A stretch of 64,000 bases of DNA from Candidatus Omnitrophota bacterium (GCA_016180575.1 JACPAY010000001.1:64857-128856); one strand, 5' to 3'; positions 13,268 through 55,615 are shown, counted from the stretch's first letter. A program made the numbers and translations. Notes: generated by a model from the letters alone, not told the origin.

Positions 13268-14161
13268 TCGCACAGACACCTTCGAAGCCGGCTCACCGCG
13301 CCAGGTCTGCACCACCTCGACGCGCCAGGGATGCCGGCGCAGCGACCCGGCGACGGCCTCCGCCTGGGCCGCGTCGCGGCAGAGGCCGAAGACCGCGGGC
13401 CCGCTGCCGGAGACAGAAACCCCCTCACAGCCAAGACGGCTCAGAGAAGACTGGATGGTCGCAATGACAGGGCAACGCCGGATCGCTATAGGTTGAAGAT
13501 CGTTCCGTAATCCCTTAGCGAGCTCGCCGAGCGAGCCGTTGCGTAAGGCGTGCGTCACCATGCTAATCGAGGAGGGGGGGGCTGTCAAGCTGATTTCCAG
13601 CGCCGCCTCCTGATCCCAGGCCGCGAAGATATCCTTCGTGGTCAGGCGATCCGGCGGCACCGCCAGGACATGGGCCAGCGGCCGCACGCCCGCCAGGGGC
13701 TCGCATCGCTCCCCCCGGCCCCGCCCGATCGCAAACGGGGCCTCGCCAAGAAAGAAGGCGACGTCGGACCCCACGCCCGCGCCAAGCTCGGCGAGCCTGC
13801 CGGGGGGCCATCGGAGATCCCAGAGCGCGTTGAGGCCGAGGAGCGCTGCGGCCGCGTCGGAGGAGCCGCCCCCCAGTCCGGCTGCGATGGGGATGCGTTT
13901 GGCAAGATGGATGCGGGCCCCGCGCGTCAGGCCGCTGGCCTGCTGCAGCGCCCTCGCCGCGCGCAGGACGAGGTTGTCCTCGCCGCAGGAAAGCGCCGGC
14001 TCCGTGCAGGTGAGCGCCAGCTCCCCGTGCGGCTCGAAGGCCAGCTCATCACACAGGTCGATCCGCTCGAAGAGCGTTTCGATCTCGTGGTAGCCGTCAG
14101 CTCGTCGCCCGACCACGCGGAGCGACAGGTTCAGTTTGGCAGGTGCGGACAGGCGTATCAT
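13253..14161 (-). CDS. ispE: 4-diphosphocytidyl-2-C-methyl-D-erythritol kinase
   Basis: 302 aa with PAKLNL.L.V and the GHMP kinase loop PIAAGLGGGSSDAAA. The last 15 nt overlap the 5' end of tRNA-Gln. Confidence 0.9.
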   Translation of the reverse strand: MIRLSAPAKLNLSLRVVGRRADGYHEIETLFERIDLCDELAFEPHGELALTCTEPALSCGEDNLVLRAARALQQASGLTRGARIHLAKRIPIAAGLGGGSSDAAAALLGLNALWDLRWPPGRLAELGAGVGSDVAFFLGEAPFAIGRGRGERCEPLAGVRPLAHVLAVPPDRLTTKDIFAAWDQEAALEISLTAPPSSISMVTHALRNGSLGELAKGLRNDLQPIAIRRCPVIATIQSSLSRLGCEGVSVSGSGPAVFGLCRDAAQAEAVAGSLRRHPWRVEVVQTWRGEPASKVSVRWGVV

Positions 14162-14165
14162 TTAG

Positions 14166-14211
14166 AAGTACCGGGTACTTTTCCCGCTTTGCGAAGTACC
14201 CGGTACTTTTT
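14166..14211. repeat. Family B hairpin repeat, copy B1
   Basis: AAGTACCGGGTACTTTTCCCGCTTTGCGAAGTACCCGGTACTTTTT. It fills the whole transketolase-ispE intergenic gap. Confidence 0.9.
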
Positions 14212-15160
14212 AACCGAGCGCGCTTTGCTTGAGGCGGAGGACGTCCTTGGCGGCCTTGACGAGGTCCTCCGGCATGAGGTGGAACGCCTTCAGGAGCTCG
14301 GCGGGATCGCCGGAGGTGCCGAACCGGTCGAGCACGCCCACGAAGCGCATCGGGACCGGATGCGCCTGGACGAGCAGCTCGGCAACCGCGCCGCCGAGCC
14401 CCCCGAGGACGGTGTGCTCTTCGGCCGTGACGACGGCGCCGGTCTCCTTGGCGGCGGCGAGGAGGGTCGCCTGGTCGAGCGGCTTGATGGTGTGCAGGTT
14501 GATGACGCGCGCCTCGATCCCCTCCTTGGCCAGCTGCTCGGCCGCCTGGAGGGCGTGCGCGACCATGACCCCGCAGGCGACAATGGCCAGGTCGTCGCCG
14601 GGCCGCATCACGACCGCCTCGCCGATCCGGTAGGGATCGGCCTCCTTGGTGATCGCCGGCACCGGCGCCCGCCCGAGGCGCAGGAAGACCGGGCCGGAAT
14701 GGTCCGCGCTGGCGAGCGTCGCCTTCTTGGCCTCCACGGCGTCGCAGGGCACGATCACGGTCATGTGCGGCAGCGTGCGCATGTGCGCCAGCTCCTCCAG
14801 CGCCTCGGCCGTGGCGCCGTCGGCGCCGACCGACAAGCCGCCGTGCGAGCCGACGATCTTGACGTTCAGCTTCTGGTAGCAGACCGCCATCCGGAGCTGC
14901 TCCAGCGCCTTGCCGGTCACGAACTGCGAGAAGGAGCACGCGAAGGGGACCTTGCCCATCAGCGCCAGGCCCGCGGCCGTGCCGATCATGTCCTGCTCGG
15001 CGATGCCGACGGAGAAGAACCGGTCCGGGTACTCCTTCTTGAACCAGATGGCCCGCGCCGAATCCTCCAGGTCGCCGGAGAGCGCCACGACATGCGGATG
15101 CGTCTTCCCCAGCGCCAGCAGCCCTTCCCCGAACCCGTCCCGCGTCGGTTTGCCGGCCAT
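14210..15160 (-). CDS. transketolase, C-terminal (pyrimidine-binding) subunit
   Basis: 316 aa with FFSVGIAEQDMIGTAAGLA and GSHGGLSVGADGATAEALEE. It pairs with the upstream N-terminal subunit. Confidence 0.9.
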   Translation of the reverse strand: MAGKPTRDGFGEGLLALGKTHPHVVALSGDLEDSARAIWFKKEYPDRFFSVGIAEQDMIGTAAGLALMGKVPFACSFSQFVTGKALEQLRMAVCYQKLNVKIVGSHGGLSVGADGATAEALEELAHMRTLPHMTVIVPCDAVEAKKATLASADHSGPVFLRLGRAPVPAITKEADPYRIGEAVVMRPGDDLAIVACGVMVAHALQAAEQLAKEGIEARVINLHTIKPLDQATLLAAAKETGAVVTAEEHTVLGGLGGAVAELLVQAHPVPMRFVGVLDRFGTSGDPAELLKAFHLMPEDLVKAAKDVLRLKQSALG

Positions 15161-20492: not shown

Positions 20493-20531
20493 CCGGTATC
20501 AGATACCAAAGCGAGTTTGGTATCTGATACC
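20493..20531. repeat. Family A palindromic pair, copy A2
   Basis: CCGGTATCAGATACCAAA-gcgag-TTTGGTATCTGATACC. 16-bp stem and 5-nt loop, immediately upstream of the SD of the CheY-like gene. Confidence 0.9.
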
Positions 20532-22407: not shown

Positions 22408-22964
22408 GCACCACCTTTCAAAGTACCGGGTACTTTTCCCGCTTTGGGAAGTACGCGGTACTTTTTCTCGAGGGCGGCGATCTGCTTCACGCGGCGCTCA
22501 TGCCGCCCGCCCGACTCGAAGGGGGTCGCGAGCCACACCTCCGTGATGCGCCTGGCCCGCGCCTCGCTCAGCTTCTCCGCCCCCAGCACGAGGATGTTCG
22601 CGTCGTTGTGGCTGCGGCTGCGCTCCGCATCGAAGGGATCATGGCAGACCGCCGCGCGGATGCCCGGCACCTTGTTCGCCGCGATGGCGATCCCGATCCC
22701 GGACTTGCACAGCAGGATGCCCCGGTCGAACGCCCCCTGCGCCACCGCCGCGGCGACCCGGCCGCCGATCGCCGGATAGTCGCACGGCGCCGCGGAATGG
22801 GTGCCCAGGTCCGCCACCTCCAGCCCCCTCGCCCTCAGCAGCGCCACCAGCTTCGCCTTGAGCTGGAAGCCGCCGTGGTCCGCGCCGACCGCGACCCGAA
22901 CAGGTCCGGTATCAGATACCTTCGAGTGTCTGGATATCTTCTTTTGGTATCTGATACCGGTCAT
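22404..22964 (-). CDS. rpiB: ribose-5-phosphate isomerase B with repeat-encoded N- and C-terminal extensions
   Basis: 186 aa. The core is [13 protein letters not shown]...[20 protein letters not shown]...[13 protein letters not shown]. The only in-frame start is ATG 22964 (ATGA overlap), so repeat A3 is translated as [21 protein letters not shown]. The 3' end reads through repeat B2. Confidence 0.9.
22420..22466. repeat. Family B hairpin repeat, copy B2 (inside the rpiB 3' coding end)
   Basis: AAAGTACCGGGTACTTTTCCCGCTTTGGGAAGTACGCGGTACTTTTT. It is read through as ..[20 protein letters not shown]. Confidence 0.9.
22906..22960. repeat. Family A palindromic pair, copy A3 (translated as the rpiB N-terminus)
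   Basis: CCGGTATCAGATACC (22906-22920), a 25-nt spacer, then GGTATCTGATACCGG (22946-22960). Confidence 0.9.
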
Positions 22965-23437
22965 TGGACGCCGAGCGACTTCGCCACGCGCTCGACCGCC
23001 TCGCGGATCTCCGCAAAGCAGACCTCGTACACCTCGAGCGGCTTGCCGATGGGGTCCGGGATGCCCGCGGGGCCCGCCACCTCGCCCGGCCCGCGGCCGA
23101 AGGGTTTCAAGAGGTGCACCTTCCCGGCGGCGGCCGGCTCGCGCCGGATGACCTCCTCGGCCTGAAACGGCTCCATGACGAACACGAGGTCCGCCGCCCG
23201 GATCATGTCGGGGGTGAGGACCCTCGCCCGGTGGCCCGAGCAATCCACGCCGGCCTCCAGCAGCACGCGCTGCGTCTCCCGGGTCGCGCCCATCCCATCG
23301 ATGGCGAAGACGCCCGCGGATTCGACCTGGACCGCCTCCCTGCCGGCTCGCTGGAGCCGCTGCGTCAGCAGCCCTTCCGCCATGACGCTGCGGCAGCTGT
23401 TGCCGGTGCAGACAAAGAGAATCCGCTTCACATTCAT
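22961..23437 (-). CDS. low-molecular-weight protein phosphatase (YwlE-like; Tyr/Arg phosphatase family)
   Basis: 158 aa from ATG 23437. Contains RILFVCTGNSCRS (the CX5R P-loop) and DPIG near the C-terminus. It occupies the ywlE position in tsaC-ywlE-rpiB-glyA synteny. Confidence 0.85.
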   Translation of the reverse strand: MNVKRILFVCTGNSCRSVMAEGLLTQRLQRAGREAVQVESAGVFAIDGMGATRETQRVLLEAGVDCSGHRARVLTPDMIRAADLVFVMEPFQAEEVIRREPAAAGKVHLLKPFGRGPGEVAGPAGIPDPIGKPLEVYEVCFAEIREAVERVAKSLGVQ

Positions 23438-23442
23438 CAGCT

Positions 23443-23491
23443 GAGACAGGAGACAAGAGACGGGAGACAGGTGGGGGCTGTCTCCTGTCTC
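23443..23491. repeat. Family C heptamer palindrome at the tsaC/ywlE-like junction
   Basis: GAGACAG GAGACAA GAGACGG GAGACAG gtggggg CTGTCTC CTGTCTC. The tsaC stop lies in the last unit. Confidence 0.9.
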
Positions 23492-24113
23492 ATGTTGTTC
23501 CGATGATTGCCATGATGGCGTCTTTTGGGATCGCCCCTGCCCGGCGGATCTCGACGCGCCCGTCGCGCACCTCCACGACGGTCGATTCGCGCCCCAGGCG
23601 GGTCGGCCCGCCGTCGAGGATGCAGTCGATCGAGCCGTCCAGGGCGGCGAGCACCTCGCTCGCATCCGTCGGCGGCGGCGAGCCCGACCGGTTGGCGCTG
23701 GGGGCCACGACGGGGACCCCGCACGCCTGGAGAAACACCCGCGCGATGGGGTGGTCCGGCAGCCGGAAGCCGACGGTCTTGCCGTCCGCTCCCGGCATCA
23801 CGATGGTCAGGGGGCCTGGCCAGAACCGTTTCATGAGCGTCGCGGCCAGCGGCGGCACCGAGGCCACGAAGGGGCCCACCTGATCGGGCGCATGGATGTG
23901 CAGCGAATACGGTTTGTCGGGCGGCCGCCCCTTGACCCGGTCCAGCCGCTCGATGGCCGCGGGATTGGCGGCATCGGCCCCGAGGCCGTAGACCGTCTCG
24001 GTCGGGAACGCCACCAGCCCGCCGCCGCGCAGGATCTTCGCGGCCTCCGCGATCAGCGCCGGATCCGGCGCATCACCCGCCACCCCGAAGATCCGCGGCG
24101 TGCTAGAAGTCAT
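23490..24113 (-). CDS. tsaC: L-threonylcarbamoyladenylate synthase (TsaC/YrdC/Sua5 family)
   Basis: 207 aa from ATG 24113 with VAFPTETVYGLGADA, KGRP..KP and SANRSG. The 266-aa track ORF is over-extended. Confidence 0.9.
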   Translation of the reverse strand: MTSSTPRIFGVAGDAPDPALIAEAAKILRGGGLVAFPTETVYGLGADAANPAAIERLDRVKGRPPDKPYSLHIHAPDQVGPFVASVPPLAATLMKRFWPGPLTIVMPGADGKTVGFRLPDHPIARVFLQACGVPVVAPSANRSGSPPPTDASEVLAALDGSIDCILDGGPTRLGRESTVVEVRDGRVEIRRAGAIPKDAIMAIIGTT

Positions 24114-29108: not shown

Positions 29109-31429
29109 CAGCGCCGCAGCCCCCACGCGCGCGGAAGCCCGGTCCGCCAGGCCTCGCTCAGCTCGTCGACCGGCACATCGATCCATGAGTCGAGGCGCAG
29201 ATGCGCGCCGCCCACCCGGCCCAGGACCGCCATCGGCACGTTGTGGCGCGCGGCCAGGTGCTCGACCCGCTCCACGTGGTACCGCGCGCAGCTGGCGACG
29301 ATGCGGCCCGCCGACTCGCCGAAGAGCAGCGCATCGGTCCGTATTCGCTGACGGCTGCCCGCCCCGGCCCTCGTGATGGGCGGGCCGGGGAAGGCTGACG
29401 GCTGAAGGCTGACCACGGCGCCGAGGAGCCGCGCGGGCTCCATGATGCAGCATTCGGCCAGCGCGACCGCCAGCCCCCCTTCGGAGCAGTCGTGCGCCGA
29501 CTTAAGCCACCCCTGGGAGGCCAGCGCCAGCATCAGCTGCTGCAGCGCCGACTCGCCCGCCAGGTCAACCCGCGGGGGTTTGCCCGCCTTGCGCTTGTGG
29601 ATCATGGCCAGGTACTCGCTGCCGCCCAACTCCTCCCGCGTCTCGCCGAGGAGGATGACGGCGTCGCCCTCATCCTTAAAGTTCGCCGTAATCGGTCCTG
29701 GGACAGGAGACGGGGGACGTGAGACATGTCTCCTGTCTCTTGTCTCCTGTCTCGGTTCAATCAGGCCGATCATGCCGATCACCGGCGTCGGATCGATCGC
29801 GCCCCGCGGCCCCTCGTTGTAGAAACTCACGTTGCCGCCGGTCACGGGCGTCTTGAACGCCCGGCAGGCGTCACTGATCCCGCGGACGCACGCCTTGAAC
29901 TGCCACATGACCGCCGGGTCCTGCGGGCTGCCGAAGTTGAGGCAGTCGGTGACGGCGAGCGGCCGCGCCCCGACGCAGACCAGGTTGCGCGCCGCCTCGG
30001 CCACCGCCGCCTTGCCGCCCTCGTAGGGGTCGAGGAAACAGAAGCGGCCGTTGCCGTCGGTGGTCGCCGCCAGCCACGTGCCGAGCGCCCTGAGCCGCAG
30101 GACGGCGGCATCCGCCCGTCCGGGGAGGACCGCGGTGTTCGTCTGGACCATGTGGTCGTACTGCTCGAAGACGGCGGATTTATCCGCGATCGTCGGCGAA
30201 CCCAGCAGCGTCAGGAGCACGGCGCCGTAATCCTTCGGCAGCGGCAGCCGAGCCAGCAGCAGCCGCTGCGCCCGGGCGAGCCCCGCCGGGCGCCGGACCG
30301 GCCGGCGGTACACCGGCGCCTCGTCGGTGAGCGCCGAGGCCGGGATCTCCGCCGCGACGGCAGAGCCGTCCCGCACCCGCATCAGGCCGTCGCGCGTCAC
30401 CCGCCCGATCTCCACCGCGTTGAGCCCCCATTTGGCGAAGAGCCGCTTGACCCGCTCCTCGCGGCCGCGCTTCGCGATGAGCAGCATGCGCTCCTGCGAC
30501 TCGGAGAGCATCACCTCATACGGGGTCATCCCCTCCGCGCGGCGCGGCACGCGCGCGACATCGATCTCGATCCCCACGCCCCCGCGCGCGGCGGTCTCTG
30601 AGGTCGAGCAGGTCAGGCCGGCCGCGCCCATGTCCTGGATGCCGACGACGTCGCCGGTCGCCAGCGCCTCGAGCGTCGCCTCGATCAGACATTTCTCGGT
30701 GAACGGGTCGCCGATCTGGACCGCCGGCCGGTCCGCATCGCCGTCGGCCAGCTCGCGCGAGGCGAACGAGGCGCCGCCCAGGCCGTCGCGGCCCGTCGAG
30801 GAGCCGACGTACAGGACCGGGTTGCCGACCCCGCCGGCCGCCGCGCGCGCGATCCGCCGCGCCGGCACCAGGCCGATGCACATCACGTTGACGAGCGGGT
30901 TGTCCCGGTAGGCCGGGTCGAAGGCGATCTCGCCGCCCACCGTCGGGACGCCAACCGCGTTCCCGTAGTCGCTGATCCCTTTCACCACGCCCTCCAGGAG
31001 AAACCGGCTGCGGGGCTCCTCCAGCGGACCGAAGCGCAGAGAGTCCAAGAGCGCGATGGGCCTGGCCCCCATGGTGAAGATGTCGCGGATGATGCCGCCC
31101 ACCCCGGTCGCGGCCCCCTGCACCGGCTCCACCGCGGAGGGGTGGTTGTGGCTCTCGCATTTGAACACGACCGCCCAGCCCCCGCCGATGTCCACCACGC
31201 CGGCGTTCTCCTTCCCGGCCGGCACGAGGATGCGCGGGCCCTTCGTCGGGAACGTCTTGAGGTACGGCCGGGAGCTGCCGTAGCTGCAATGCTCCGAATA
31301 CATGACGCCGAAGATCCCGACCTCCGTCAGCGTCGGCTGGCGGCCCAGCGTCTTGACGATGTGCCGGTACGTCTCGTCCGTGAGGTTGTGCGACTTCGCG
31401 ACCCGCTTCAGCAGCTGCGCGTCAGGCAT
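29108..31429 (-). CDS. purL: phosphoribosylformylglycinamidine synthase subunit PurL (FGAM synthase II)
   Basis: 773 aa with SEHCSY, GGIIRDI and the duplicated PurM-like domains. It contains an in-frame insertion encoded by repeat C3. Confidence 0.95.
29700..29755. repeat. Family C heptamer palindrome inserted in frame in purL
   Basis: GGGACAG GAGACGG GGGACGT GAGACAT | GTCTCCT GTCTCTT GTCTCCT GTCTCGG. It is translated as ..[20 protein letters not shown].. Confidence 0.9.
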
Positions 31430-33197: not shown

Positions 33198-33618
33198 TGC
33201 TCGGCTCCTGTGGCGGCGTCGGTGCCTGGGGGACGGTGGCCGGCTTCAAGGTGTAGGCCCACGTCCGCTCATCGCGGATGGGAAACGGCAGCAGCTCCAT
33301 CGCCAGATCGAGCGGGATCCAGAAATAGACCGGGGCGCGCAGCTCCTTGCGGTCGTCCAGCCGCTCGTAGCCGTCCTTCCGCAGCAGCACCCGGTGCCAG
33401 CCGTACCACGTGAAGTCGTACGTGACCGGGCTCTCCCCCTTGAACTGGTCGTTGACGTACACGAGCGCCCCGGGCGGCTCGGTCCGAATGGTGAGCGAGC
33501 GCCGGATGCAGCCGGTCAGCGCAAGGCAGAGCGCGAGCAGTGTGGCCGCGATAGTCCCGGGTCCGGTTCCCTGTTTCCTAGAGTTGTCCGATGGGAAAGA
33601 GGGAACCGGACTCCTCAT
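33184..33618 (-). CDS. PEGA-domain lipoprotein
   Basis: 144 aa from ATG 33618, with an ATGA overlap on the purB stop. Lipobox LALTGC followed by a PEGA-like IRTEPPGALVYVNDQFKGESP. Confidence 0.65.
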   Translation of the reverse strand: MRSPVPSFPSDNSRKQGTGPGTIAATLLALCLALTGCIRRSLTIRTEPPGALVYVNDQFKGESPVTYDFTWYGWHRVLLRKDGYERLDDRKELRAPVYFWIPLDLAMELLPFPIRDERTWAYTLKPATVPQAPTPPQEPSNEPR

Positions 33619-34910
33619 TTGAGGCCCACCCGCTTGAAAATCCGGTCCACATGCTTCAGGTGCGGCGCGGGGCTGAGGCAGCGCCGCACCGCCGCCGGCG
33701 TGAGGCGGGCGCGGACGGCCGGATCGCGCAGCAGGACGTCCCCGAACTCCCCGCCGTTGCGCCACGCCGACAGCGCGGCGCGCTGCACGAGCGTGTAGGC
33801 CCGGGTGCGGGTCAGGCCCCGCCGCATCAGCGCCAGCAGCACCTGGCCGGAGTAGGTCACCCCGCGCGTGCTCTCCAGGTTGGCGCGCATCCGGTCCGGA
33901 TGGACGATGAGCCCGCGCACCACCTCCGTCATCGTCCGCAGCATGTAGTCCAGGGTGATGGCCGCGTCGGGCAGGATGACGCGCTCGACCGAGGAGTGGC
34001 TGATGTCCCGCTCATGCCAGAGCGCGATGTTCTCCATGGCGGCCACGGCGTAGCCGCGCAGGAGCCGGCTCAGGCCGGCGACCCGCTCGCAGACGACGGG
34101 GTTCCTCTTGTGCGGCATCGCGGAGGAGCCCTTCTGGCCCCGCCCGAACGGCTCCTCGACCTCGCGCACCTCGGTGCGCGCCAGGTGCCGCAGCTCCGTC
34201 GCCAGCTGCTCCAGGCTGCCGCCGATGAGCGCCAGCGTCGAAACGTAGGCGGCGTGCAGGTCGCGCTGGAGGATCTGCGTCGAGATCGGCGCCGGGGCGA
34301 GGCCGAGCCGGCGGCACACCTGGCGCTCCACGGCCGGGTCCACGTTGGCGAACGTCCCGACGGCGCCCGACACCTTCCCGACGCTCACGGCGCGGCGCTC
34401 GCGCGAGAGGCGCTCGAGGTGCCGGGCGAACTGGTCGTAGAACATCGCGAGCTTCAGGCCGAAGGTGGTCGGCTCGGCGTGCACGCCGTGGGTGCGGCCG
34501 ATCATGAGCGTACGCTTGTGCCGGCGGGCCTTGGCCGCGAGCGCCCGGAGCAGCCCGCGGAGGTCCTGCAGGAGCAGGTCCGTCGCCTCGCGCAGCAGGA
34601 CGGCGAGCGAGGTATCGAGGATATCGCTTGAGGTGAGGCCGAAGTGGAGATAGCGGCCGTCAGGGCCGACGCGCGATTCGAGCGTCTCGATGAACGCGAT
34701 GACGTCGTGGCGCGTGCGGGCTTCCCGCTGCTGGATGGCGGCGGCGTCGACGCGGGCCTTGCGGCGGATCGCCTGGACCGCCCGCCGGGGCACAAGGCCC
34801 GCTGCGGCCTGCGCCTCCAGCACCTGCAACTCCACCTCCAGCATGACCTGGAGCCGGTGTGTTTCGCTCCAGACAGCGCCCATCGCCGGAAGGGTGTAGC
34901 GGGGGATCAT
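33615..34910 (-). CDS. purB: adenylosuccinate lyase
   Basis: 431 aa from ATG 34910: [16 protein letters not shown], plus the [10 protein letters not shown] signature. The upstream part of the track ORF is repeat A4 read-through. Confidence 0.95.
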
Positions 34911-34920
34911 CGCCAGCCTC

Positions 34921-34961
34921 CCGGTATCAGATACCAATCGGAAAATGGTATCTGATACCGG
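34921..34961. repeat. Family A palindromic pair, copy A4
   Basis: CCGGTATCAGATACC-aatcggaaaat-GGTATCTGATACCGG in the purB 5' leader, abutting the SD GGGAGG. Confidence 0.9.
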
Positions 34962-35081
34962 AACTTCAGGTTGCGACAAGGCATCCCACCCCTCTGGCGG
35001 GGCAGGCGGTTGGCGAACGTGCTCTTGAAGGATGGCTGGTCAAGCGCGTGGCGCACGGGCGTGCCTTCCGTAGCGGTGTTC

Positions 35082-37642: not shown

Positions 37643-37650
37643 CAAAAAAG

Positions 37651-37700
37651 AAAAAGGTACCGGGTACTTTTCCCGCTTTGGGAAGTACCCGGTACTTTTT
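37651..37700. terminator. Family B hairpin repeat, copy B3, acting as a bidirectional intrinsic terminator
   Basis: AAAAAGGTACCGGGTACTTTTCCCGCTTTGGGAAGTACCCGGTACTTTTT lies between the convergent desaturase (stop 37642) and the oxidase IV-like gene (stop 37702). The stem of about 18 bp is flanked by an A-run on one side and a T-run on the other. Confidence 0.75.
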
Positions 37701-37701
37701 G

Positions 37702-37980
37702 TTACAGCCGGATGAGGAAGCTGGAGAAGACGACGCCGAGGGCGAGGGCGATCAGCCCGAAGGGGGCGAGCGCGACGAACGCGAGGAGCCGCCGGTCGCC
37801 CTTGAGGTGCATGTAGAAGAGCGCGACCAGCGCGGCCTTGATGGAGGAGAGCGCCACGACGATGCCCACGATGCCCGCGCGCGGCAGGCGCAGGAGCGGC
37901 CATTCCGACAGGACCACCCCCAGCAGCATGAGCCCTGCCAGCCATCCCCAGATAATCAGATAGAGCCTCGTCCCAGCCAT
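37702..37980 (-). CDS. heme-copper oxidase subunit IV-like small membrane protein (CyoD/QoxD-type)
   Basis: 92 aa with 3 TM. ..AALVALFYMHLK.. resembles prokaryotic COX4 proteins. It directly follows the subunit III-like gene. Confidence 0.7.
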   Translation of the reverse strand: MAGTRLYLIIWGWLAGLMLLGVVLSEWPLLRLPRAGIVGIVVALSSIKAALVALFYMHLKGDRRLLAFVALAPFGLIALALGVVFSSFLIRL

Positions 37981-37983
37981 CGC

Positions 37984-38577
37984 CTAGAAGAGGTAGAGCA
38001 TCGGGAACAGGAAGATCCAGACGATGTCCACGAAGTGCCAGTAGAGACCGGCGTACTCCAGCCGGTGCCCGCGGGCGGCCCACGCCGATTGGGAACGGGC
38101 ATAGGCGAGCACCCAGAGATTGAAGACAATCCCGCCGAGCACGTGCAGCGCGTGGAAGCCGGTCAGGACGAAGTAGCACGACCAGAAGATGTTGGTGCTC
38201 GGAACGATGTGGTGGGAGAACTTCGCGGCGTACTCGAACCCCTTGATGATGAGGAAGCAGGAACCCAGCCCGGCTGTCGCCAGCAGCCAGCCGCGCGTCA
38301 TCCCCAGCGCCCCCCGCCCGGAGGCGGCCAGCGCCAGGACGATGGTCGTGCTGCTGCAGATGAGGATGAGCGTGTTGGCCGTCCCGATCCCCACGTTCAG
38401 GTGCCCCTCGGAGCCCGGCCAGGCGGGGTTCCCCATCCGCAGCACGATGTAGGCGCCGATGAGGCCGGTGAAGAACATCACCTCCGAGGCGAGGAACACC
38501 CACATCCCCAGCTTGCCGCTGGGGATGTGGGTGGCGGTCTCAACCGCGGGATGACCCGCCGTCGCGGTGGTGCTCAT
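37984..38577 (-). CDS. heme-copper oxidase subunit III family protein (CyoC/QoxC/NorE-like)
   Basis: 197 aa with 5 TM: GMWVFLASEVMFF.GL, FHALHV.GG and WHFVD.VW.FLF. No subunit I or II gene is present in the window. Confidence 0.85.
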   Translation of the reverse strand: MSTTATAGHPAVETATHIPSGKLGMWVFLASEVMFFTGLIGAYIVLRMGNPAWPGSEGHLNVGIGTANTLILICSSTTIVLALAASGRGALGMTRGWLLATAGLGSCFLIIKGFEYAAKFSHHIVPSTNIFWSCYFVLTGFHALHVLGGIVFNLWVLAYARSQSAWAARGHRLEYAGLYWHFVDIVWIFLFPMLYLF

Positions 38578-38583
38578 CCACTC

Positions 38584-39105
38584 CTAGAACGCGACTGGCT
38601 TGCCGTCCGCGTCCTGCACGTCCACGCCGCCGTCCGCGCGCGTCCGGGCGACGAACAGCGTGCGGCCGGTGTCGTCGGACCCGACGGTGACCCCGTCGCG
38701 CCGCGACAGCCGCAGGCTGCCGGCCGGCTGGCCGTCGCGGAATTGCTCGACGAGCAGCTCGGGCGCCTCGTATGCCGACGGCGTATAGGTCAGCACGGCC
38801 TCCGCCTCGCCGCGGACGATGCGCTTGGTGGCGGGGTGGTTTACCCCTGCGGTCGTCGGCGGATCAACGGGGTTGTTGCCGGTCCAGAACTCCATGGAGT
38901 TGAACACGACCGCGTCGCCCAGCACCGCGACGCCGTAGATGGGCAGCCACGCGAGGATGAGGAACATGAACTCCCGTTCCCACTTGGCGCCGACCTGCTC
39001 GTTCCACCGGTAGAGCCGCCGGGTGAGGTTGAACGGCCCGAAACACCCGCTCGTCAACAGCCCCAGCGCGACCAGCACGATCCCCGTACGCAGCGCTCGA
39101 TGCAT
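38584..39105 (-). CDS. DUF3332-like lipoprotein
   Basis: 173 aa from ATG 39105, preceded by SD GGGAGGGG. Lipobox LLTSGC then FNLTRRLYRWNEQVG.KWEREFMFLILAWLPIYGVAVLGDAVVFNSMEFWTG.NP. Confidence 0.65.
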   Translation of the reverse strand: MHRALRTGIVLVALGLLTSGCFGPFNLTRRLYRWNEQVGAKWEREFMFLILAWLPIYGVAVLGDAVVFNSMEFWTGNNPVDPPTTAGVNHPATKRIVRGEAEAVLTYTPSAYEAPELLVEQFRDGQPAGSLRLSRRDGVTVGSDDTGRTLFVARTRADGGVDVQDADGKPVAF

Positions 39106-39156
39106 CTGGCCCCTCCCTGTTGTCACGCGCCCCACGTGACCGTAGCGTAACACACG

Positions 39157-39948
39157 TCATTCCCCTTCGCAACCGATGATGAGGCCGCGCGCGGCCCAAC
39201 CGGCGAACCAGTCGGCCACCGGAGGGGCGTCACCCGCCTGCGCCGCCAGCTCCCCGCACACGGCGCCGAGCGGGCGGCCGGCCAGCAGCCCTTCCAGCAC
39301 CGCGTGCTGGCGCTCGTCCACGAGCTCGCAGCGGACCTCCAATCCCTGGCGGAAGACGAGGACGCGCTGGGGGCGGCTGATCAGGTCAATGTCAACCGCC
39401 GGGCGGGGTTGGGTGCGCGCGGCCCAGATGTCGAGGATGGGCCAGGCCGATGCCACGAGCCCGATCGAGGGCTGGAAGACGACCCGCGCGCGGTCCCACG
39501 CCTCAAGCGGCAGCTGGGCGAACCGCCGGGGGTCGATCGGAGGGGCCTCAAAGGCGTGGAACGCCTCGCGGACGGCCCACTCCAGGCGCGCGAGGTCCGG
39601 CAGGAACGGCAGCGTCGAGGTCAGCGGCCAGTCGGCGAGGAACGCGGCCAGGTGGCGGCCGGCCAGGCTGAGGTTGTAGTGCTGCGACGGGTAGCGGTCG
39701 GCGTAGCCGCGGCTCATCTCCGTGAAGGCGCGCTCACCCGCGACATGGCGGATGGCCTCGTACGCCTCGGCGAGCGATTGGCGGATGCGCGCGACGTAGC
39801 CCCCGGCGTACACGGCGAGCCGCTCGGCGCCGGGCGTGCCCCGCTGGGGGTTGAGGAGGTCCGATGGAACGCCGGGGGGCGAATCGCCGCCGGGACGGAG
39901 CCGGGACTTGACCCACCGCTGGACCTCGGCCAGTGGCGGTCCGCTCAT
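39157..39948 (-). CDS. bufC: DUF2063 family protein (BufC/MbnC-like partner of the MNIO enzyme)
   Basis: 263 aa from ATG 39948. Contains ..LAVYAGGYVARIRQSLAEAYEAIRHV.GE.AF. and LARLEWAVREAF. It sits immediately downstream of the DUF692 gene. Confidence 0.75.
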   Translation of the reverse strand: MSGPPLAEVQRWVKSRLRPGGDSPPGVPSDLLNPQRGTPGAERLAVYAGGYVARIRQSLAEAYEAIRHVAGERAFTEMSRGYADRYPSQHYNLSLAGRHLAAFLADWPLTSTLPFLPDLARLEWAVREAFHAFEAPPIDPRRFAQLPLEAWDRARVVFQPSIGLVASAWPILDIWAARTQPRPAVDIDLISRPQRVLVFRQGLEVRCELVDERQHAVLEGLLAGRPLGAVCGELAAQAGDAPPVADWFAGWAARGLIIGCEGE

Positions 39949-39959
39949 CGCGCGGGGGC

Positions 39960-40871
39960 TCACGGCCGCGCCGGCGTTTCGGCGGGCTGGCCGCCGAGGA
40001 CCTGGACGTAGATGGCGCGGGCCCGGTCGGCTTCCTCCGCGAGCCGCGCAAAGGGCGGGATGTCCTCGTCCCATTCGATCAGCGTGGTCACCGGCCCCCA
40101 GCGGGTGAGCGCCTCCCGGTAGAGCGCCCACACCTCGTCGATGACGGGGCGGCTGTGCGTGTCGAAGAGGTACCCGCCCATGTCGGTGTGCCCGGCGAGG
40201 TGGAACTGGCCGACCAGCTCGCCCGGGATGCCGCGGAGGTACTCGAGGGGGTCGAACTGGTGGTTGTAGGCGTTGACGTACACGTTGTTCAGGTCAAGCA
40301 GGATGCCGCAGCCGGAGCGCTCGGCGACGGCGGCGAGGAACTCCCATTCCGGCATCGTCGAGTGCCGGTAGGTCACGTAGGCGGAGACGTTCTCCAGCAG
40401 GATCCGGCGCCCGAGCCGCTCCTGCACCTCGCCCACCCGGCCGGCGACGTGCCGGACCGCTTCCTCGGTGAACGGCAGCGGCAGCAGGTCGTGGAGCTGC
40501 TCCCCCTCCACGCCGGTCCAGCAGAGATGGTCGGAGACGATGGCCGGGTCGATGCGGTCCGCGAGCGCCTTGAGGCGCTCAAGGTAGCGGGGATCGAGCG
40601 GGTCGGAGGAGCCGATCGAAAGCGAGACGCCGTGGAGCGCGACAGGATAGCGGCGGCGCACCGCTTCCAGGATGCGCAGCGGCCGGCCCCCGGAGTCCAT
40701 GAAGTTCTCCGAGATCGCCTCGAACCAATCCATGCGCGGCCAGTCGCGGGTGATGAGGTCGTAGTGCTCGCTGCGCAGCCCCACGCCGCAGCCCAGCGAC
40801 GGCCACCTGGAAAAATGGGACCGGGTGTATTTTTCTATGGTCCTCTGATTGAAAAATATACCCGGTCCCAT
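39960..40871 (-). CDS. bufB: DUF692 / MNIO family (multinuclear non-heme iron oxidative) RiPP-modifying enzyme
   Basis: 303 aa with GVGLRSEHY, FEAISENF, VALHGVSLSIGS, SDHLCW and a TIM-barrel-like pattern. The only in-frame ATG (40871) lies inside repeat B'. CTG after an AGGTGG SD is an alternative start. Confidence 0.85.
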   Translation of the reverse strand: MGPGIFFNQRTIEKYTRSHFSRWPSLGCGVGLRSEHYDLITRDWPRMDWFEAISENFMDSGGRPLRILEAVRRRYPVALHGVSLSIGSSDPLDPRYLERLKALADRIDPAIVSDHLCWTGVEGEQLHDLLPLPFTEEAVRHVAGRVGEVQERLGRRILLENVSAYVTYRHSTMPEWEFLAAVAERSGCGILLDLNNVYVNAYNHQFDPLEYLRGIPGELVGQFHLAGHTDMGGYLFDTHSRPVIDEVWALYREALTRWGPVTTLIEWDEDIPPFARLAEEADRARAIYVQVLGGQPAETPARP

Positions 40872-40905
40872 TTTTCGGTCCCGTTTTTTCCCGGTCCCGC
40901 GGTCC
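40810..40905. repeat. Family B' repeat array between bufA and bufB
   Basis: GAAAAATGGGACCGGGTGTATTTTTC (40810-40835), a 15-nt spacer, then GAAAAATATACCCGGTCCCATTTTTC (40851-40876). The inverted repeat matches at 25/26. It is followed by degenerate GGTCCC(G)TTTTT units up to 40905. Confidence 0.85.
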
Positions 40906-41202
40906 TTACGCGGCGGGCTCGGCCGCTTCCGGCTCTTCGGTCAGGCGGCCGCCCTCGATCCGCAGGCAGTCGTCCTTGTCCAGCTCAATGTAGCTCTGCC
41001 CCTTGCAGGCGTTCTGCCCGGCGCAGGAGTGGCCCTTGCCGCCACAGTCGCCGGTCCCCTGGCACTTGTTGACGCCGTAGCAGTGGACGGTCTCGCCGGC
41101 CTCTTCCGCGGCCTGCGCCTGCTGCCCCAACGAAACCCCTGCTGCCGCCAGCAATCCGGCGACCGACGCCGCCAACAGCGCCCGTTGCGTCTTGCCCTCC
41201 AT
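40906..41202 (-). CDS. bufA: DUF2282-type secreted Cys-rich RiPP precursor (bufferin-like)
   Basis: 98 aa from ATG 41202, preceded by SD GGAGGAGG. Sec signal MEGKTQRALLAASVAGLLAAAGVSLGQQAQA. The core is HCYGVNKCQGTGDCGGKGHSCAGQNACKG...DDC, with 6 Cys. Confidence 0.8.
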   Translation of the reverse strand: MEGKTQRALLAASVAGLLAAAGVSLGQQAQAAEEAGETVHCYGVNKCQGTGDCGGKGHSCAGQNACKGQSYIELDKDDCLRIEGGRLTEEPEAAEPAA

Positions 41203-41237
41203 CCCGTACCCTCCTCCGGTTGATGTGCACCCGCCCC

Positions 41238-41822
41238 TCATTTCACAATCCCTTCGATCTCGAGCGTGATCTCCACCTCGTCCCCCACCAGCAGCTGGCC
41301 GGTCTCCACCACCTCGTTCCAGGTGAGCCCGAACTCCTTCCGGTTGATCGTGACCGTCGCGGTGAAGCCGGAGCGCTGGTTGCCCCAAGGGTCCTTGCCT
41401 TCCCCATGGACGGCCAGATCCAGCACGACGGGCTGCTCGATCCCGTGGATCGTCAGGAGCCCGTGCAGCTTCGCGCCGGCCTCCGTCGCATCGGTCACCT
41501 GGGTGCTGGTGAACGTGATGGTGGGGAACCGCGCCACGTCGAAGAAGTCCTTGGAGCGCAGGTGGGTGTCGCGCTTCTCCACGCGCGTGTCGATGCTGGC
41601 GGCCTGGATGACCGCCTGCGTCTTCCAGTGGTCCGGCTGGCCGGGCACGTACTCGAACGTCCCTTCGAACTCGTTGAAGGTCCCTCGGACGTAGGAGAAG
41701 AGGTGGCGGATCTTGAAGGTGACGGTGGAGTGGTCCTGGTCAATCGTGTAGGCGGTCGCCCAGACCGGCGGCGCGACGAGCAGCGTCCCCAGGACAGCCG
41801 CAATCCCTATGTGCTGACGCAT
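41238..41822 (-). CDS. YceI family periplasmic polyisoprenoid-binding protein
   Basis: 194 aa. Signal peptide, then Y.ID..HS.V.F.I.H...S.V.G.F and ..L.GDLT(I)HG.. Confidence 0.88.
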   Translation of the reverse strand: MRQHIGIAAVLGTLLVAPPVWATAYTIDQDHSTVTFKIRHLFSYVRGTFNEFEGTFEYVPGQPDHWKTQAVIQAASIDTRVEKRDTHLRSKDFFDVARFPTITFTSTQVTDATEAGAKLHGLLTIHGIEQPVVLDLAVHGEGKDPWGNQRSGFTATVTINRKEFGLTWNEVVETGQLLVGDEVEITLEIEGIVK

Positions 41823-41850
41823 GAGATGACCTCCCTAGGCAGGAAACCTT

Positions 41851-41879
41851 ATCTTGATGCCACGGCCCGGCGTTGTCAA
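41851..41879 (-). promoter_or_regulatory. candidate promoter of the yceI-buf operon
   Basis: Minus-strand TTGACA (overlapping the arsC stop), N17, then CAAGAT. The -10 is weak. Confidence 0.3.
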
Positions 41880-42274
41880 GCCCCGGTCCGGCGGCTCATC
41901 AACGCCCGGACGGATGCGCCGAGCTGATCCCGCACCCGGCGGGCCTCCTCGAGCGGCATCGCGACAGGGTCCGGCACCTCCCAGTCGATCCGCTGCCGGG
42001 CCGGCACCGCCGGGCAGGCATCGCCGCAGCCCATCGTGACCACATAGTCCCAGGTCCGCCTCGGGATGTCCGCCAGCCCCTTCGAGCGGTGGCCGGAGAG
42101 ATCGAGGCCCAGCTCGGCCACGAGCTGCGCCGCGATCGGGTGGATCTGGCCGCTCGGACGCGAGCCCGCGCTCCAGATGTCCCATCCTGCTCGGCCAAGC
42201 GACTTGGCCATCGCCTCCGCCATCTGGGAGCGGCAGGAGTTGGCCACGCAGACGAACAGGATGCTTGGCATCAC
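41876..42274 (-). CDS. arsC: arsenate reductase ArsC (low-MW phosphatase fold)
   Basis: 132 aa with ILFVCVANSCRSQMAEA and TMGCGDACP. Confidence 0.75.
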   Translation of the reverse strand: MMPSILFVCVANSCRSQMAEAMAKSLGRAGWDIWSAGSRPSGQIHPIAAQLVAELGLDLSGHRSKGLADIPRRTWDYVVTMGCGDACPAVPARQRIDWEVPDPVAMPLEEARRVRDQLGASVRALMSRRTGA

Positions 42275-42810
42275 TCGCTGGTCATCGGCTCCGTGAGCAC
42301 GATCACGCCGCAGCCGATGCGGCCGCCGGCGTTGCCGGTCGGCTGGCTGAAATCGTCCGCCCGCTCATGCACGACGATCGACCGGCCGCCGACGCTGAAC
42401 GGGCCGCTGCCGAGGATGACGCCGGGCAGGGTGACCGTCAACGAGCCCGACCCGTCCTTCCCGACGTCGATGTTGCCCATGTCTCCCGGGTGCGCGCTCG
42501 TCACCCCGTCCTTCGGCACGAACCCGTGCGGGGTCTTCTCGGGGTTGAAGTGCCCTCCCGCGGCCTCGCCTCCCCGCGCGCAGTCGCCATACTGGTGGAT
42601 GTGCACCGCGTGCTGCCCGGGCGGGGCGCCGGCGAGCTGCACGGTCACCGCCACGCCATCCGGCGTGTCCTGCAGGGTGACGGTCCCGAGCACGCCGGGC
42701 TCCTTCGTTGACCCGATGACCGCCAGGCCATTCTCCGCCCATGCCGCCGCGGCGCCGATCCCCATCGCCATCGCCGCCATCCCCGCCGCCCACATCGATC
42801 CCGGTTTCAT
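42271..42810 (-). CDS. sodC: periplasmic Cu/Zn superoxide dismutase
   Basis: 179 aa from ATG 42810, with SD GAGGAGGG and an ATGA overlap. Contains HAVHIHQYGDC, GGHFNP, HPGDMGN and VVHE..DD. Confidence 0.9.
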   Translation of the reverse strand: MKPGSMWAAGMAAMAMGIGAAAAWAENGLAVIGSTKEPGVLGTVTLQDTPDGVAVTVQLAGAPPGQHAVHIHQYGDCARGGEAAGGHFNPEKTPHGFVPKDGVTSAHPGDMGNIDVGKDGSGSLTVTLPGVILGSGPFSVGGRSIVVHERADDFSQPTGNAGGRIGCGVIVLTEPMTSE

Positions 42811-43469
42811 CGAGCCCTCCTCATTGTTGATGACGACCGCCTCTTCCACGCCGCTTGCCAGAGCAGGAGTCCCATGATGGCCAGGAGCGCCAGCATCAGC
42901 TTCCACGCCTTCGCGAGATCGGTCAGCGAGTAGCCCAGGTACACGAACGCGATGCTCCAGGGGATGATGCCAAGCAGCGTCGCGAACGCGAAGGGGGCGA
43001 AGCGCACCCGGGAAAACCCCAGCCCGTAGTTCTGGACGTCGAACGGCAGATTGGGGATGAACCGGATCAACAGCACCGCCTTGAAGCTGTTGCGGCCCAC
43101 GCGCTCGTCCAGGGACGCCACCCGGCCCTTCAGCAGCGCCGCGACGGCCTCGCGTCCGAGCAGCCTCGCGACGACGAACTGCCCGCAGGCCCGGATCGTC
43201 GCGCCCGTCAGGGCCGCGAGCGTGCCCCAGAGCGGGCCGAACGCCAAGCCGCCGGTGATCGTCATCACGCTCGCCGGCAGCGGGATGAGCGGCTGGCCGT
43301 AGGCCAGGAGATAGATCGCGGGGGACCAGACGCCGAAGGACAGCACGAAGCCCCGCACCCTCTCGGGCGTGAGCGCGGCCACGTTCAGCCCCATGGCCGC
43401 GAGCGCCCAGCCGATGCCCACGATGAGCAGGAGCAGCGCCGCGAGCTTTGCCCAGGCGGAACCGGTCAT
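42807..43469 (-). CDS. TVP38/TMEM64 (DedA-like, SNARE-associated) membrane protein
   Basis: 220 aa from ATG 43469. Multi-TM, with LIPLPASVMTITGGLAFG and RFIPNLPFDVQNY. Confidence 0.75.
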   Translation of the reverse strand: MTGSAWAKLAALLLLIVGIGWALAAMGLNVAALTPERVRGFVLSFGVWSPAIYLLAYGQPLIPLPASVMTITGGLAFGPLWGTLAALTGATIRACGQFVVARLLGREAVAALLKGRVASLDERVGRNSFKAVLLIRFIPNLPFDVQNYGLGFSRVRFAPFAFATLLGIIPWSIAFVYLGYSLTDLAKAWKLMLALLAIMGLLLWQAAWKRRSSSTMRRAR

Positions 43470-51420: not shown

Positions 51421-51426
51421 GAAGTC

Positions 51427-51491
51427 CCGGTATCAGATACCAACCCCCGATTGGTATCAGATACCGACTTCTACTTGGTATCTGATACCGG
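51427..51491. repeat. Family A, three-unit copy A5
   Basis: Units at 51427-51441 (centre A), 51453-51465 (centre A) and 51477-51491 (centre T), between the PNP gene and mtnA. Confidence 0.9.
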
Positions 51492-52301
51492 AAGCTTGGC
51501 GATTACGCCTTGCAGGAGCGCGGTGAGCTTGGGTTCGGTGGCGGCGGCGACCCGAAGCAGCTCTTCCACGGACGCCGGCTTGAGCTCTTCAGGGATGCAG
51601 GCGTCGGAGACGACCGTCACCGCCAGCACCCGCAGCCCGCCGTGGCGGGCGGCGAGCACCTCCGGCACCATGGACATCCCGATGACGTCGGCGCCGATCT
51701 GCCGGAGGAACCGGTACTCCGCCTTCGTCTCCAGGTTCGGGCCGGCCACCGCGACGTAGACGCCGGGGCGCAGCGGAATCCCCTCCGCCTTGGCCACCTC
51801 CATCGCGAGCCGCCGCAGGGCGGGGTCGTAGGGCTCCGACATATCCGGGAAGCGCGGGCCGAGCGTCTCGTCGTTGGGGCCGATCAGGGGGTTGGCGCCC
51901 ATGAGGTTGATGTGGTCCTCGACCAGGACGAGTGAGCCGGGCGGCATCCGGCGGTTCATGCTCCCGACGATGCTGGTGAGGATGAGCGTCTTCGCCCCCA
52001 GGGCGTGCACCAGGCGGACCGGATAGGTCACCTGGGCCATCGTGTAGCCTTCGTAGAAGTGGAAGCGCCCGGCAAGGACCGCCAGCCGCTGGGCTCCGAG
52101 CGTGCCCAGCACCAGTTTGCCTTCGTGGCCCGGCGCGGTCGCCTGCGGCAGGTGCGGCAGCGCGGCGTAGTCGAGCTCCGCTTCCACGCGGAGCGCTTTC
52201 GTCAGGCCGCCCAGGCCGGAACCCACGATGAGGCCGATGTCGGGGCGGAAGGCGCTGCGCCCGCGGATCGCCTGGAGCGTTTCATCCAGCTGCTGCCGCA
52301 T
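51471..52301 (-). CDS. purine/5'-deoxy-nucleoside phosphorylase (PunA-type PNP family)
   Basis: 276 aa with GLIVGSGLG, GRFHFYEGY, GPNLET.AE and GMSMVPEV. The last codons (..LPVSDTK) and the stop lie inside repeat A5. Confidence 0.88.
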   Translation of the reverse strand: MRQQLDETLQAIRGRSAFRPDIGLIVGSGLGGLTKALRVEAELDYAALPHLPQATAPGHEGKLVLGTLGAQRLAVLAGRFHFYEGYTMAQVTYPVRLVHALGAKTLILTSIVGSMNRRMPPGSLVLVEDHINLMGANPLIGPNDETLGPRFPDMSEPYDPALRRLAMEVAKAEGIPLRPGVYVAVAGPNLETKAEYRFLRQIGADVIGMSMVPEVLAARHGGLRVLAVTVVSDACIPEELKPASVEELLRVAAATEPKLTALLQGVIAKLPVSDTK

Positions 52302-55482: not shown

Positions 55483-55544
55483 ATTCTACGCCACTCCCGG
55501 GGACACTTCCATTTTTCGCCAGCAACTGGCCGATAGCGAAAAAT
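55483..55544 (-). promoter_or_regulatory. candidate doxX promoter plus upstream 9-bp inverted repeat
   Basis: Minus-strand TGGAAG-N17-TAGAAT, with the -10 at 55488-55483. The inverted repeat ATTTTTCGC (55511-19) / GCGAAAAAT (55536-44) sits just upstream of the -35. Confidence 0.4.
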
Positions 55545-55615
55545 AGAAGCGTCCCCGCATTGAAGTGTGGCGATCCTGCTACAATCTGACCCGCCAACTG
55601 TCTTCTTATTTCACA

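Follow-up and report, generated by a model that had tools for sequence, protein, structure and literature searches.

In the biosynthesis of ribosomally synthesised peptides that undergo modification after translation (RiPPs), a read-through terminator keeps the precursor in excess (bioRxiv 10.1101/338681), and in the microcin C system a terminator lies between the precursor gene mccA and the enzyme gene mccB (PMC6495379). Stem-loops also set the stoichiometry of operons through selective stabilisation (PMC4423207, PMC8219983). The bufferin operon is copper-related (PMC11626156), and no mention of stem-loops behind its precursor gene bufA was found in the bufferin literature searched. Here we consider the gap between bufA and the enzyme gene bufB in a 64,000-nt stretch of Candidatus Omnitrophota bacterium (GCA_016180575.1, JACPAY010000001.1:64857-128856), referred to as the window, whose coordinates are used throughout and in which the buf genes are read on the minus strand. 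This gap holds one copy of a dispersed terminator-like palindrome that likely keeps bufA mRNA in excess over bufBC mRNA, next to an odd bufB start that stems from a small lineage-specific deletion, a reading that we favour with moderate confidence.

The palindrome in the bufA-bufB gap

The two genes and the features of the gap are as follows.

40906-41202, minus strand: bufA, a bufferin precursor of the BufA1/DUF2282 type, 98 aa with 6 Cys (PF10048 on the identical product)
39960-40871, minus strand: bufB (MNIO/DUF692; PF05114), called from ATG 40871, with its core from W 40805 and its native M-x-x-R-x start lost by deletion
40908-40906, minus strand: bufA stop codon TAA (sequence read)
40905-40899, minus strand: degenerate partial unit GGACCGC, abutting the TAA (sequence read)
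40898-40883, minus strand: direct unit 1, GGGACCGGGAAAAAAC, which copies part of the 5' arm (sequence read, repeat search)
40882-40870, minus strand: direct unit 2, GGGACCGAAAAAT (repeat search, 13-nt spacing, 92%)
40876-40851, minus strand: 5' arm of the hairpin, GAAAAATGGGACCGGGTATATTTTTC, containing ATG 40871-40869 (sequence read, fold, repeat search)
40850-40836, minus strand: loop, AATCAGAGGACCATA, 15 nt, unconserved (sequence read, comparison with locus L087)
40835-40810, minus strand: 3' arm, GAAAAATACACCCGGTCCCATTTTTC, with its T5 end at 40815-40811 (sequence read, fold, repeat search)
40808-40794, minus strand: AGGTGG (40808-40803), 6 nt and an in-frame CTG (40796-40794), where bufB may start at a non-canonical codon

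One hundred nucleotides separate the bufA stop from the BufB block WPSLGCGVGLR, and both the repeat units and the hairpin lie inside them, the hairpin base being 30 nt from the TAA. The arms (40876-40851 and 40835-40810) pair at 25 of 26 positions, and the element measures 67 nt including its T5 tail; the repeat search called the inverted repeat with 29-nt arms, 93% complementary, and direct spacings of 13 and 16 nt. In a hairpin census of the 64-kb window it came out longest, the runner-up having 18 matched pairs to its 25, and the RNA of 40790-40915 folds at -62.2 kcal/mol (z = -6.7), a value equalled by none of 200 shuffles. The 3' end reads CCC-AUUUUU-CC, where the U-run is also the base of an extended stem formed with the 5' A-run; its counterpart in the sister genome, the Candidatus Omnitrophota metagenome-assembled genome (MAG) nzgw327 (GCA_023247155.1, locus L087), is AUUGUU. 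The repeats and the long hairpin reported in the first-pass annotation are thus real. Upstream of the hairpin stand two and a half GGGACCG-A5 units, of which unit 1 is also able to pair with the 3' arm (inverted-repeat search), and the final 7 nt of unit 2 form the base of the 5' arm, including the first two letters of ATG 40871. Over both strands of the window there are 19 GGGACCG sites, four of them within these 90 nt.

A simple terminator scan passed over this hairpin solely because its loop limit is 8 nt. The Rfam scan of 38000-43000 (E <= 1) returned chance miRNA-like matches that scored 20 bits where 55-87 are needed to reach the gathering score; plasmid and phage collections, searched with the element by blastn, gave zero matches, and a literature search on the core sequences yielded nothing relevant.

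Set beside known element classes, the hairpin has the stable, G+C-containing stem-loop of an intrinsic terminator (26-bp stem, 25 paired), the U-rich tract directly 3' of the stem (T5) and a position shortly past a stop codon. It shares with repetitive extragenic palindromic (REP) sequences that it is extragenic, palindromic and multi-copy with a common consensus, and differs from them in its 67-nt length and T5 tail. REPs are told from Rho-independent terminators by the T-rich tail of the latter, and those of E. coli measure 14-40 nt (RepRanger criterion, PMC12306157); because a T-rich tail is present, the copies described here are classed as terminator-like rather than as REPs. A miniature inverted-repeat transposable element (MITE) with target-site duplication was ruled out, since no direct repeat is found at both ends of the element and the GGGACCG half-units are one-sided.

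A dispersed family and its turnover

The first-pass annotation had presented the hairpin as a possible attenuator of the RiPP operon; it is not specific to the operon and proved to be a member of a dispersed terminator-like family present at many unrelated gene ends. The strict pattern taken from the bufA-bufB arms, ACCGGGTNNATTNTT...AANAATNNACCCGGT, matched 16 loci in a search set of one genome per species, five of them in nzgw327, with one copy in its own bufA-bufB gap and four elsewhere. These copies share sequence beyond the search pattern, the core being preceded by AAAAAT-GGG and followed by CCC-ATTTT, and the family consensus AAAAATGGG includes an ATG at all loci. About 12 of the 16 lie at most 20 nt from a stop codon, and five are placed between convergent genes. 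Because the flanks consist of an A-run and a T-run, transcription of either strand yields a hairpin with U residues behind it.

A covariance model (R1), trained on ten copies of the hairpin family, found five looser relatives in the window (33550-33622, 37647-37706, 55498-55557, 14161-14213 and 22417-22468) beside the single strict copy, whose self-match at 40808-40878 scored 79 bits; R1 also matches the bufA-bufB hairpins of L012 and L007. Four of the relatives are delimited as follows.

33561-33611, no strand assigned: palindrome 4 nt past the ADSL stop, same superfamily (R1 39 bits, E = 7e-9)
37652-37700, no strand assigned: family B palindrome GTACCGGGTAC between convergent desaturase and cox4 genes (R1 31 bits)
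14161-14213, no strand assigned: family B copy filling the 48-nt gap between two co-directional minus-strand genes (R1 24 bits)
55498-55557, no strand assigned: GGGGAC...ATTTTTCGC palindrome resembling the bufA-bufB hairpin of L012 (R1 25 bits)

The stops flanking the palindrome at 37652-37700 lie at 37642 (plus strand) and 37702 (minus strand). The family B copies at 14161-14213, 22420-22464 and 37652-37700 (sequence AAAGTACCGGGTACTTTTCCCGCTTTGGGAAGTACCCGGTACTTT) are near-identical even in their loops, and the edges of the one in the 48-nt gap coincide with the neighbouring stop and start codons.

The same hairpin occupies the bufA-bufB gap of nzgw327, whose BufB (P0001) is the closest diverged one (90% identity over the whole open reading frame (ORF), 93% over the conserved core), and that of L088, from Hainich groundwater (BufB identity 93%). 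Proteins identical to BufA, retrieved by identical-protein look-up, belong to the same strain only and have spacers 100% identical, which makes them uninformative. The identical locus is present in the Logan runs SRR12113383/84, SRR12113401 and SRR12113431-33, from groundwater or aquifer samples. In nzgw327 all four A5T/AT5 tracts read AACAAT/ATTGTT, so that the changes are compensated. Over the basal 15 pairs of six aligned orthologous hairpins (the window, L087, L088, L007, L012 and L010), 93% of cells pair, with two-sided changes at 7 of 15 pairs and one-sided changes at none. The hairpin interior of nzgw327 matches that of the window at 23 of 33 positions as the reverse complement and at 16 of 33 directly, which suggests that the interior was flipped between the arms. 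By this comparison, the presence of the hairpin in the gap predates the divergence of the window, nzgw327 and Hainich lineages.

In the syntenic gap between ADSL and the gene for a PEGA protein (window 33480-33700, L087 16730-16960), the two genomes have different hairpins between identical flanks, and nzgw327 keeps a window-type 5' arm, followed by a duplicate of the 11-nt flank ATAGTCCCGGG and then a hairpin of the strict family. We regard this gap as direct evidence for hairpin turnover via duplication or conversion. Partial 5' arms remain after such turnover, and the GGGACCG-A5 units of the bufA-bufB gap are probably partial 5'-arm duplicates of this origin. What the first-pass annotation called an array does not look like a designed one: three of the other nzgw327 copies have an additional upstream GGGACCG...AAAAAT half-unit as in the window, half-units flank the family copies at L094, L095 and L104, and this family trait has the look of leftover partial 5' arms.

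Other palindromes were noted in the same material. A second family, CCGGTATCAGATACC...GGTATCTGATACCGG, occupies short intergenic gaps of the window at 1263-1310, 20495-20531, 22902-22964, 34919-34963 and 51425-51493, and a related CCGGTGTCTGACACC palindrome (family-A type) fills the bufA-bufB gap of L009. Inverted repeats of a further family, of the GAGACAGGAGACA type, lie at 23453-23495 and 29698-29755. The region 22408-23489 contains three different palindromes and no convincing ORF with high G+C at third codon positions under a crude gene filter. Outside Omnitrophota, arms near-identical to the consensus (AAAAATGGGACCGGGTCCATTTTTC) occur in the 'Planctomycetales' MAG CAZKXY (L091 3295-3364, L091 4350-4419 and L102 7586-7655), and in a Clostridia MAG from Hadza gut (27-30% G+C) four GGACCGGGTACATTTTT palindromes lie at the ends of convergent genes (L090, L092, L093 and L096); shared descent, transfer, convergence or mis-binning are candidate sources of these copies. 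ORFs that start inside a palindrome (MGPGPFF..., MDPVP...) or end there (...TMGP*, ...GPGTFFSIL*) were found at L091 3302-4354, L102 5711-7648, the PEGA gene of L100 and L087, L096 3098-4192 and L104 3295-4140. Gene ends predicted for these MAGs are thus subject to systematic distortion by the repeats.

The bufB start codon

From the upstream in-frame stop to the conserved block, ATG 40871 is the sole in-frame ATG, GTG or TTG, in agreement with the first-pass annotation, which had named it the only in-frame ATG for bufB. The other in-frame candidates are AUA 40859, AUA 40838, CUG 40796 and GUG 40784, the last within GVGLR. In a set of 120 homologues, BufB usually begins M-x-x-R-x-WP-x-LGCGVGLR; Met stands 11 residues ahead of GVGLR in 44 of them, and a natural MLGCGVGLR N-terminus is present in eight.

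In L088, L012, L007 and L010 the hairpin is followed by bufB's own ATG, outside the stem and five codons ahead of WP. The junctions read TTCC-AGG-TGG in the window, TTCC-AAG-TGG in nzgw327 and TTCC-TAACGATGAGTGAGCGGCGG-TGG in L088. By comparison with these relatives, a derived deletion of about 17 nt downstream of the hairpin, common to the window and nzgw327, removed the native bufB ATG together with the sequence just upstream of it, so that the only ATG left is the one in the arm. Masking of the bufB start by the hairpin had been suggested as a possibility; since the ancestral ATG is separate and outside the stem, such masking is not ancestral and is a by-product of the deletion.

Relative to nzgw327, bufB is under purifying selection (dN/dS 0.17, dS 0.22), and it must therefore still be translated. 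Translation would probably be at a low level, from either of two candidate starts, the arm ATG or the CTG behind AGGTGG. The arm ATG does encode the 22 repeat-derived residues noted earlier ahead of the conserved motif; that motif, however, begins with WPSLGCGVGLR (W 40805) and not with GVGLR, and the leader is unconserved, with 11 of 22 residues identical to nzgw327 against 93% over the rest of BufB, its conserved residues (MGPG, YTRSH) being those of the stem core. The equal 22-codon length of the leader in the two genomes was considered as a sign of coding constraint and rejected, as the interior was apparently flipped as a unit and identity is 50%. In L088, as in the independent L105, translation from the arm ATG likewise stays in frame and open, and this ATG may be usable; however, it is part of the family consensus at all loci and sits within a 26-bp stem. 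The alternative CTG start is preceded in the window by AGGTGG and 6 nt, a reasonable Shine-Dalgarno (SD) sequence with an anti-SD duplex of -5.9 kcal/mol, whereas nzgw327 has AAGTGG in its place. ATG 40871 and CTG 40796 are both poor thermodynamically, and the comparison does not separate the two.

At L105 1493-1590 (BufB P0114, 74% identity), a different hairpin, GGGGACGGTTCTCTTTTCC...GGAAAAGAGAACCGTCCCC, has an in-frame arm ATG with no later ATG, and a GTG stands immediately ahead of LGCGVGLR.

Proposed precursor excess, rival readings and known systems

The operon of the window reads yceI-bufA-bufB-bufC(HvfC_N)-DUF3332, followed by cox3 and cox4 (window 38584-39156 to 41834); upstream of it are genes for a Cu/Zn superoxide dismutase-like protein, a low-molecular-weight phosphatase/ArsC-like protein and a thioredoxin-domain protein. 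Gene order is conserved in nzgw327, minus DUF3332. In a rough thermodynamic model of initiation (anti-SD duplex and unfolding cost), bufA has a strong SD, GGAGGAGGG, whose duplex reaches -12.6 kcal/mol while unfolding costs about 10 kcal/mol, and yceI is similar; the candidate bufB starts of the window combine SD duplexes of -4 to -6 kcal/mol with unfolding costs of 21-30 kcal/mol, and those of close relatives are similarly poor (16-39 kcal/mol, with duplexes of +1.2 to -8.9 kcal/mol).

As in RiPP operons with an attenuator, the stem-loop is located between the precursor gene and the gene for the first modification enzyme (stop 40906, hairpin 40810-40876, core 40805), and stem-loops recur at the equivalent position of homologous clusters. 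Of 63 distinct bufA-to-bufB spacers, obtained from 80 metagenome loci and fetched relatives, 60 were foldable by length, and 29 of these are strongly structured (z <= -2.5 relative to shuffles). Strong structure is found in 11 of 23 spacers at >=80% BufB identity and in 16 of 25 below 70%, including the majority of the distant operons (61-66% identity), and the stem-loops concerned are mutually unrelated in sequence. The attenuator after the precursor gene that had been proposed at the outset is consistent with this recurrence, with the covariation of the closest orthologues and with the logic of RiPP operons, although the element is not specific to the operon. A further 13 of the 63 spacers (L008, L013, L020, L024, L028, L030, L035, L036, L039, L045, L048, L050 and L073) share the motif GCGC(A/G/C)(A/G)(C/T)AGG, mostly 0-14 nt ahead of the downstream ATG or GTG, and a strong hairpin is missing from all 13. 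Hairpin and motif thus appear to define two mutually exclusive types of spacer, and the motif may serve as a ribosome-binding site or in some other capacity.

We propose that the element, built of A5T, a GGGACCGGGT core, AT5, a loop and the reverse complement of these, would form a hairpin followed by a U-run from either strand, and that its most likely role in the buf transcript is that of a leaky intrinsic terminator, of a 3' stabilising stem-loop, or of both. Being placed between co-directional genes of one operon, it could cause only partial termination if bufBC are to be expressed. Either role would let bufA mRNA, with its strong SD and open initiation region, outnumber bufBC mRNA, with its weak and structured one. 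Several points weigh against this proposal. Standard terminator models have a stem of about 5-14 bp and a loop of 3-8 nt, so that the short stem and small loop of a textbook intrinsic terminator are missing here and the 26-bp stem and 15-nt loop far exceed them. Some of the orthologous or analogous hairpins have no U-run (L007, L010 and a large number of GC-rich ones). A hairpin is absent from about half of the bufA-bufB spacers and is accordingly dispensable for the operon, and the 29 of 60 were scored against a background of shuffles, not of other intra-operon gaps. The terminating and stabilising roles are both read from form and position, and strict Watson-Crick covariation free of G-U intermediates fits maintenance of a palindrome at the DNA level equally well.

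That last point leads to the possibility of a selfish or neutral REP/MITE-like DNA palindrome, spread or homogenised as DNA into permissive gaps with no selected role in the buf operon and kept palindromic by template switching or gene conversion. Near-identical copies at unrelated loci, the exchange of hairpins between identical flanks in the ADSL/PEGA gap with its leftover 5' arm in the sister genome, the apparently flipped interior in the window versus L087, Watson-Crick-only covariation with no one-sided change, and the family-A-type palindrome in the bufA-bufB gap of L009 all speak for it. We consider it unlikely, since the hairpin has been kept in this gap across lineages with dS 0.2-0.3, unrelated stem-loops recur past bufA in distant operons, and the close tie to stop codons and convergent gene ends argues for an RNA 3'-end signal; moreover, no target-site duplication or transposase was seen in the 64 kb covered, in which no search directed at REP-associated tyrosine transposases was made. 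A role of the DNA itself as operator, with GGGACC(G/C)GGT half-sites bound by a putative dimeric regulator of the buf genes such as a metal sensor, would suit a copper-related operon (PMC11626156), the quasi-palindromy of each arm around ACC(G/C)GGT and the clustering of direct copies. It is most improbable, however, and was rejected on position, because copies lie past the stops of unrelated genes and between convergent genes, outside promoter regions; in addition, the exact reverse complementarity of the arms extends to non-palindromic positions, which points to the symmetry of a hairpin or cruciform, and the flanking genes have no evident functional coherence.

Two further readings concern the bufB start. 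ATG 40871 could be the true start, sequestered by the hairpin so that BufB synthesis depends on an open stem, for instance through ribosome loading during transcription, re-initiation past bufA, temperature or another signal. Such a translational gate would agree with the absence of any other canonical in-frame start, with an ATG that is conserved and in frame in L087 and in frame and open in L088 and L105, with purifying selection on bufB and with an unfolding cost of about 30 kcal/mol. It becomes distinctly improbable given the ancestral ATG outside the stem in L088, L012, L007 and L010, which makes masking a by-product of the deletion, the unconserved leader (11 of 22), the weak SD of the arm ATG (-4 kcal/mol) and the occurrence of an ATG within the family consensus everywhere, for which no bufB-specific cause is needed. 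Cleavage of the duplex by a putative RNase III-type activity would instead leave a protective half-stem at the 3' end of bufA mRNA and release a bufB mRNA that has its 5' end within the 3' arm and is translated from AGGTGG-N6-CTG. RNase III needs roughly 20 bp of duplex, which the 26-bp stem with 25 pairs exceeds, and AGGTGG, 6-7 nt and the in-frame CTG come right behind the stem. A start at this CTG would give MGCGVGLR, one residue short of the MLGCGVGLR of eight homologues, and selective processing and stabilisation at stem-loops is documented in other operons (PMC4423207). The sequence AAGTGG in nzgw327 and the shorter stems of many family members make this reading very doubtful, as does its dependence on CTG, a start codon that is very rare and inefficient in bacteria. 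A wider extension of the terminator-like proposal, speculative and distinctly improbable, would see the A5T-GGGACCGGGT palindromes as mobile or self-homogenising terminator cassettes across the Planctomycetes-Verrucomicrobia-Chlamydiae (PVC) group, in which the ATG on both strands of AAAAATGGG repeatedly donates start and stop codons to neighbouring genes. The arm ATG would then be the real bufB start here and, independently, in L105, with BufB made only from read-through transcripts on which ribosomes load before the 3' arm is made. If true, escape from termination would of necessity be kinetically coupled to translation, which would fix a very low ratio of enzyme to precursor.

Returning to the leaky terminator or stabilising stem-loop that we favour, a stem-loop behind bufA is common in bufA1-type operons and may set the ratio of precursor to enzyme, and in heterologous bufferin constructs the hairpin would be worth keeping or deliberately removing. 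Gene callers have probably run on into terminator-like palindromes in the 303-aa BufB model and in the similar 'MGPG...' N-termini of related MAGs, and start sites adjoining such repeats call for care. Omnitrophota genomes have several terminator-like palindrome families with concerted change of the two arms, a possible resource on the spread of terminators and REPs in an uncultured phylum. None of these points overturns current understanding.

Compared with described systems, the element resembles RiPP read-through hairpins, such as that between mccA and mccB, in having a stable stem-loop with a U-run directly past the precursor stop, ahead of the first enzyme gene, in a precursor ribosome-binding site far better than that of the enzyme, and in a position that recurs in many bufferin operons; it differs in belonging to a genome-wide repeat family and in being much longer (26 bp, 15-nt loop). 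The element is like bidirectional intrinsic terminators (A-tract, stem-loop, T-tract) in its symmetric A5T...AT5 flanks, which give a hairpin and a U-run from either strand, and copies of the family are frequent between convergent genes, but the bufA-bufB copy lies between co-directional genes of an operon and has extra inner A/T tracts and a long loop. REPs and bacterial interspersed mosaic elements (BIMEs), which act in operons as mRNA 3' stabilisers or terminators, are alike in being extragenic, palindromic and multi-copy with a shared consensus, in occupying short post-stop gaps within and between operons, and in the concerted evolution of both arms. They are unlike the element here in its A-run and T-run flanks, its length of about 67 nt and its arms, which begin with GGGAC and have neither the GTAG nor the CGTC tag. 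Inverted pairs of DNA uptake sequences (DUS) in Neisseria and of uptake signal sequences (USS) in Haemophilus reportedly double as terminators (Kingsford et al. 2007, cited in PMC12306157), and the likeness to these would be one of form only, in the short core ACCGGGT/ACCCGGT arranged as inverted pairs at gene ends. The hairpin after bufA is thus an ordinary feature and a tidy example of kinds already known, the RiPP read-through hairpin and the REP- or terminator-like repeat.

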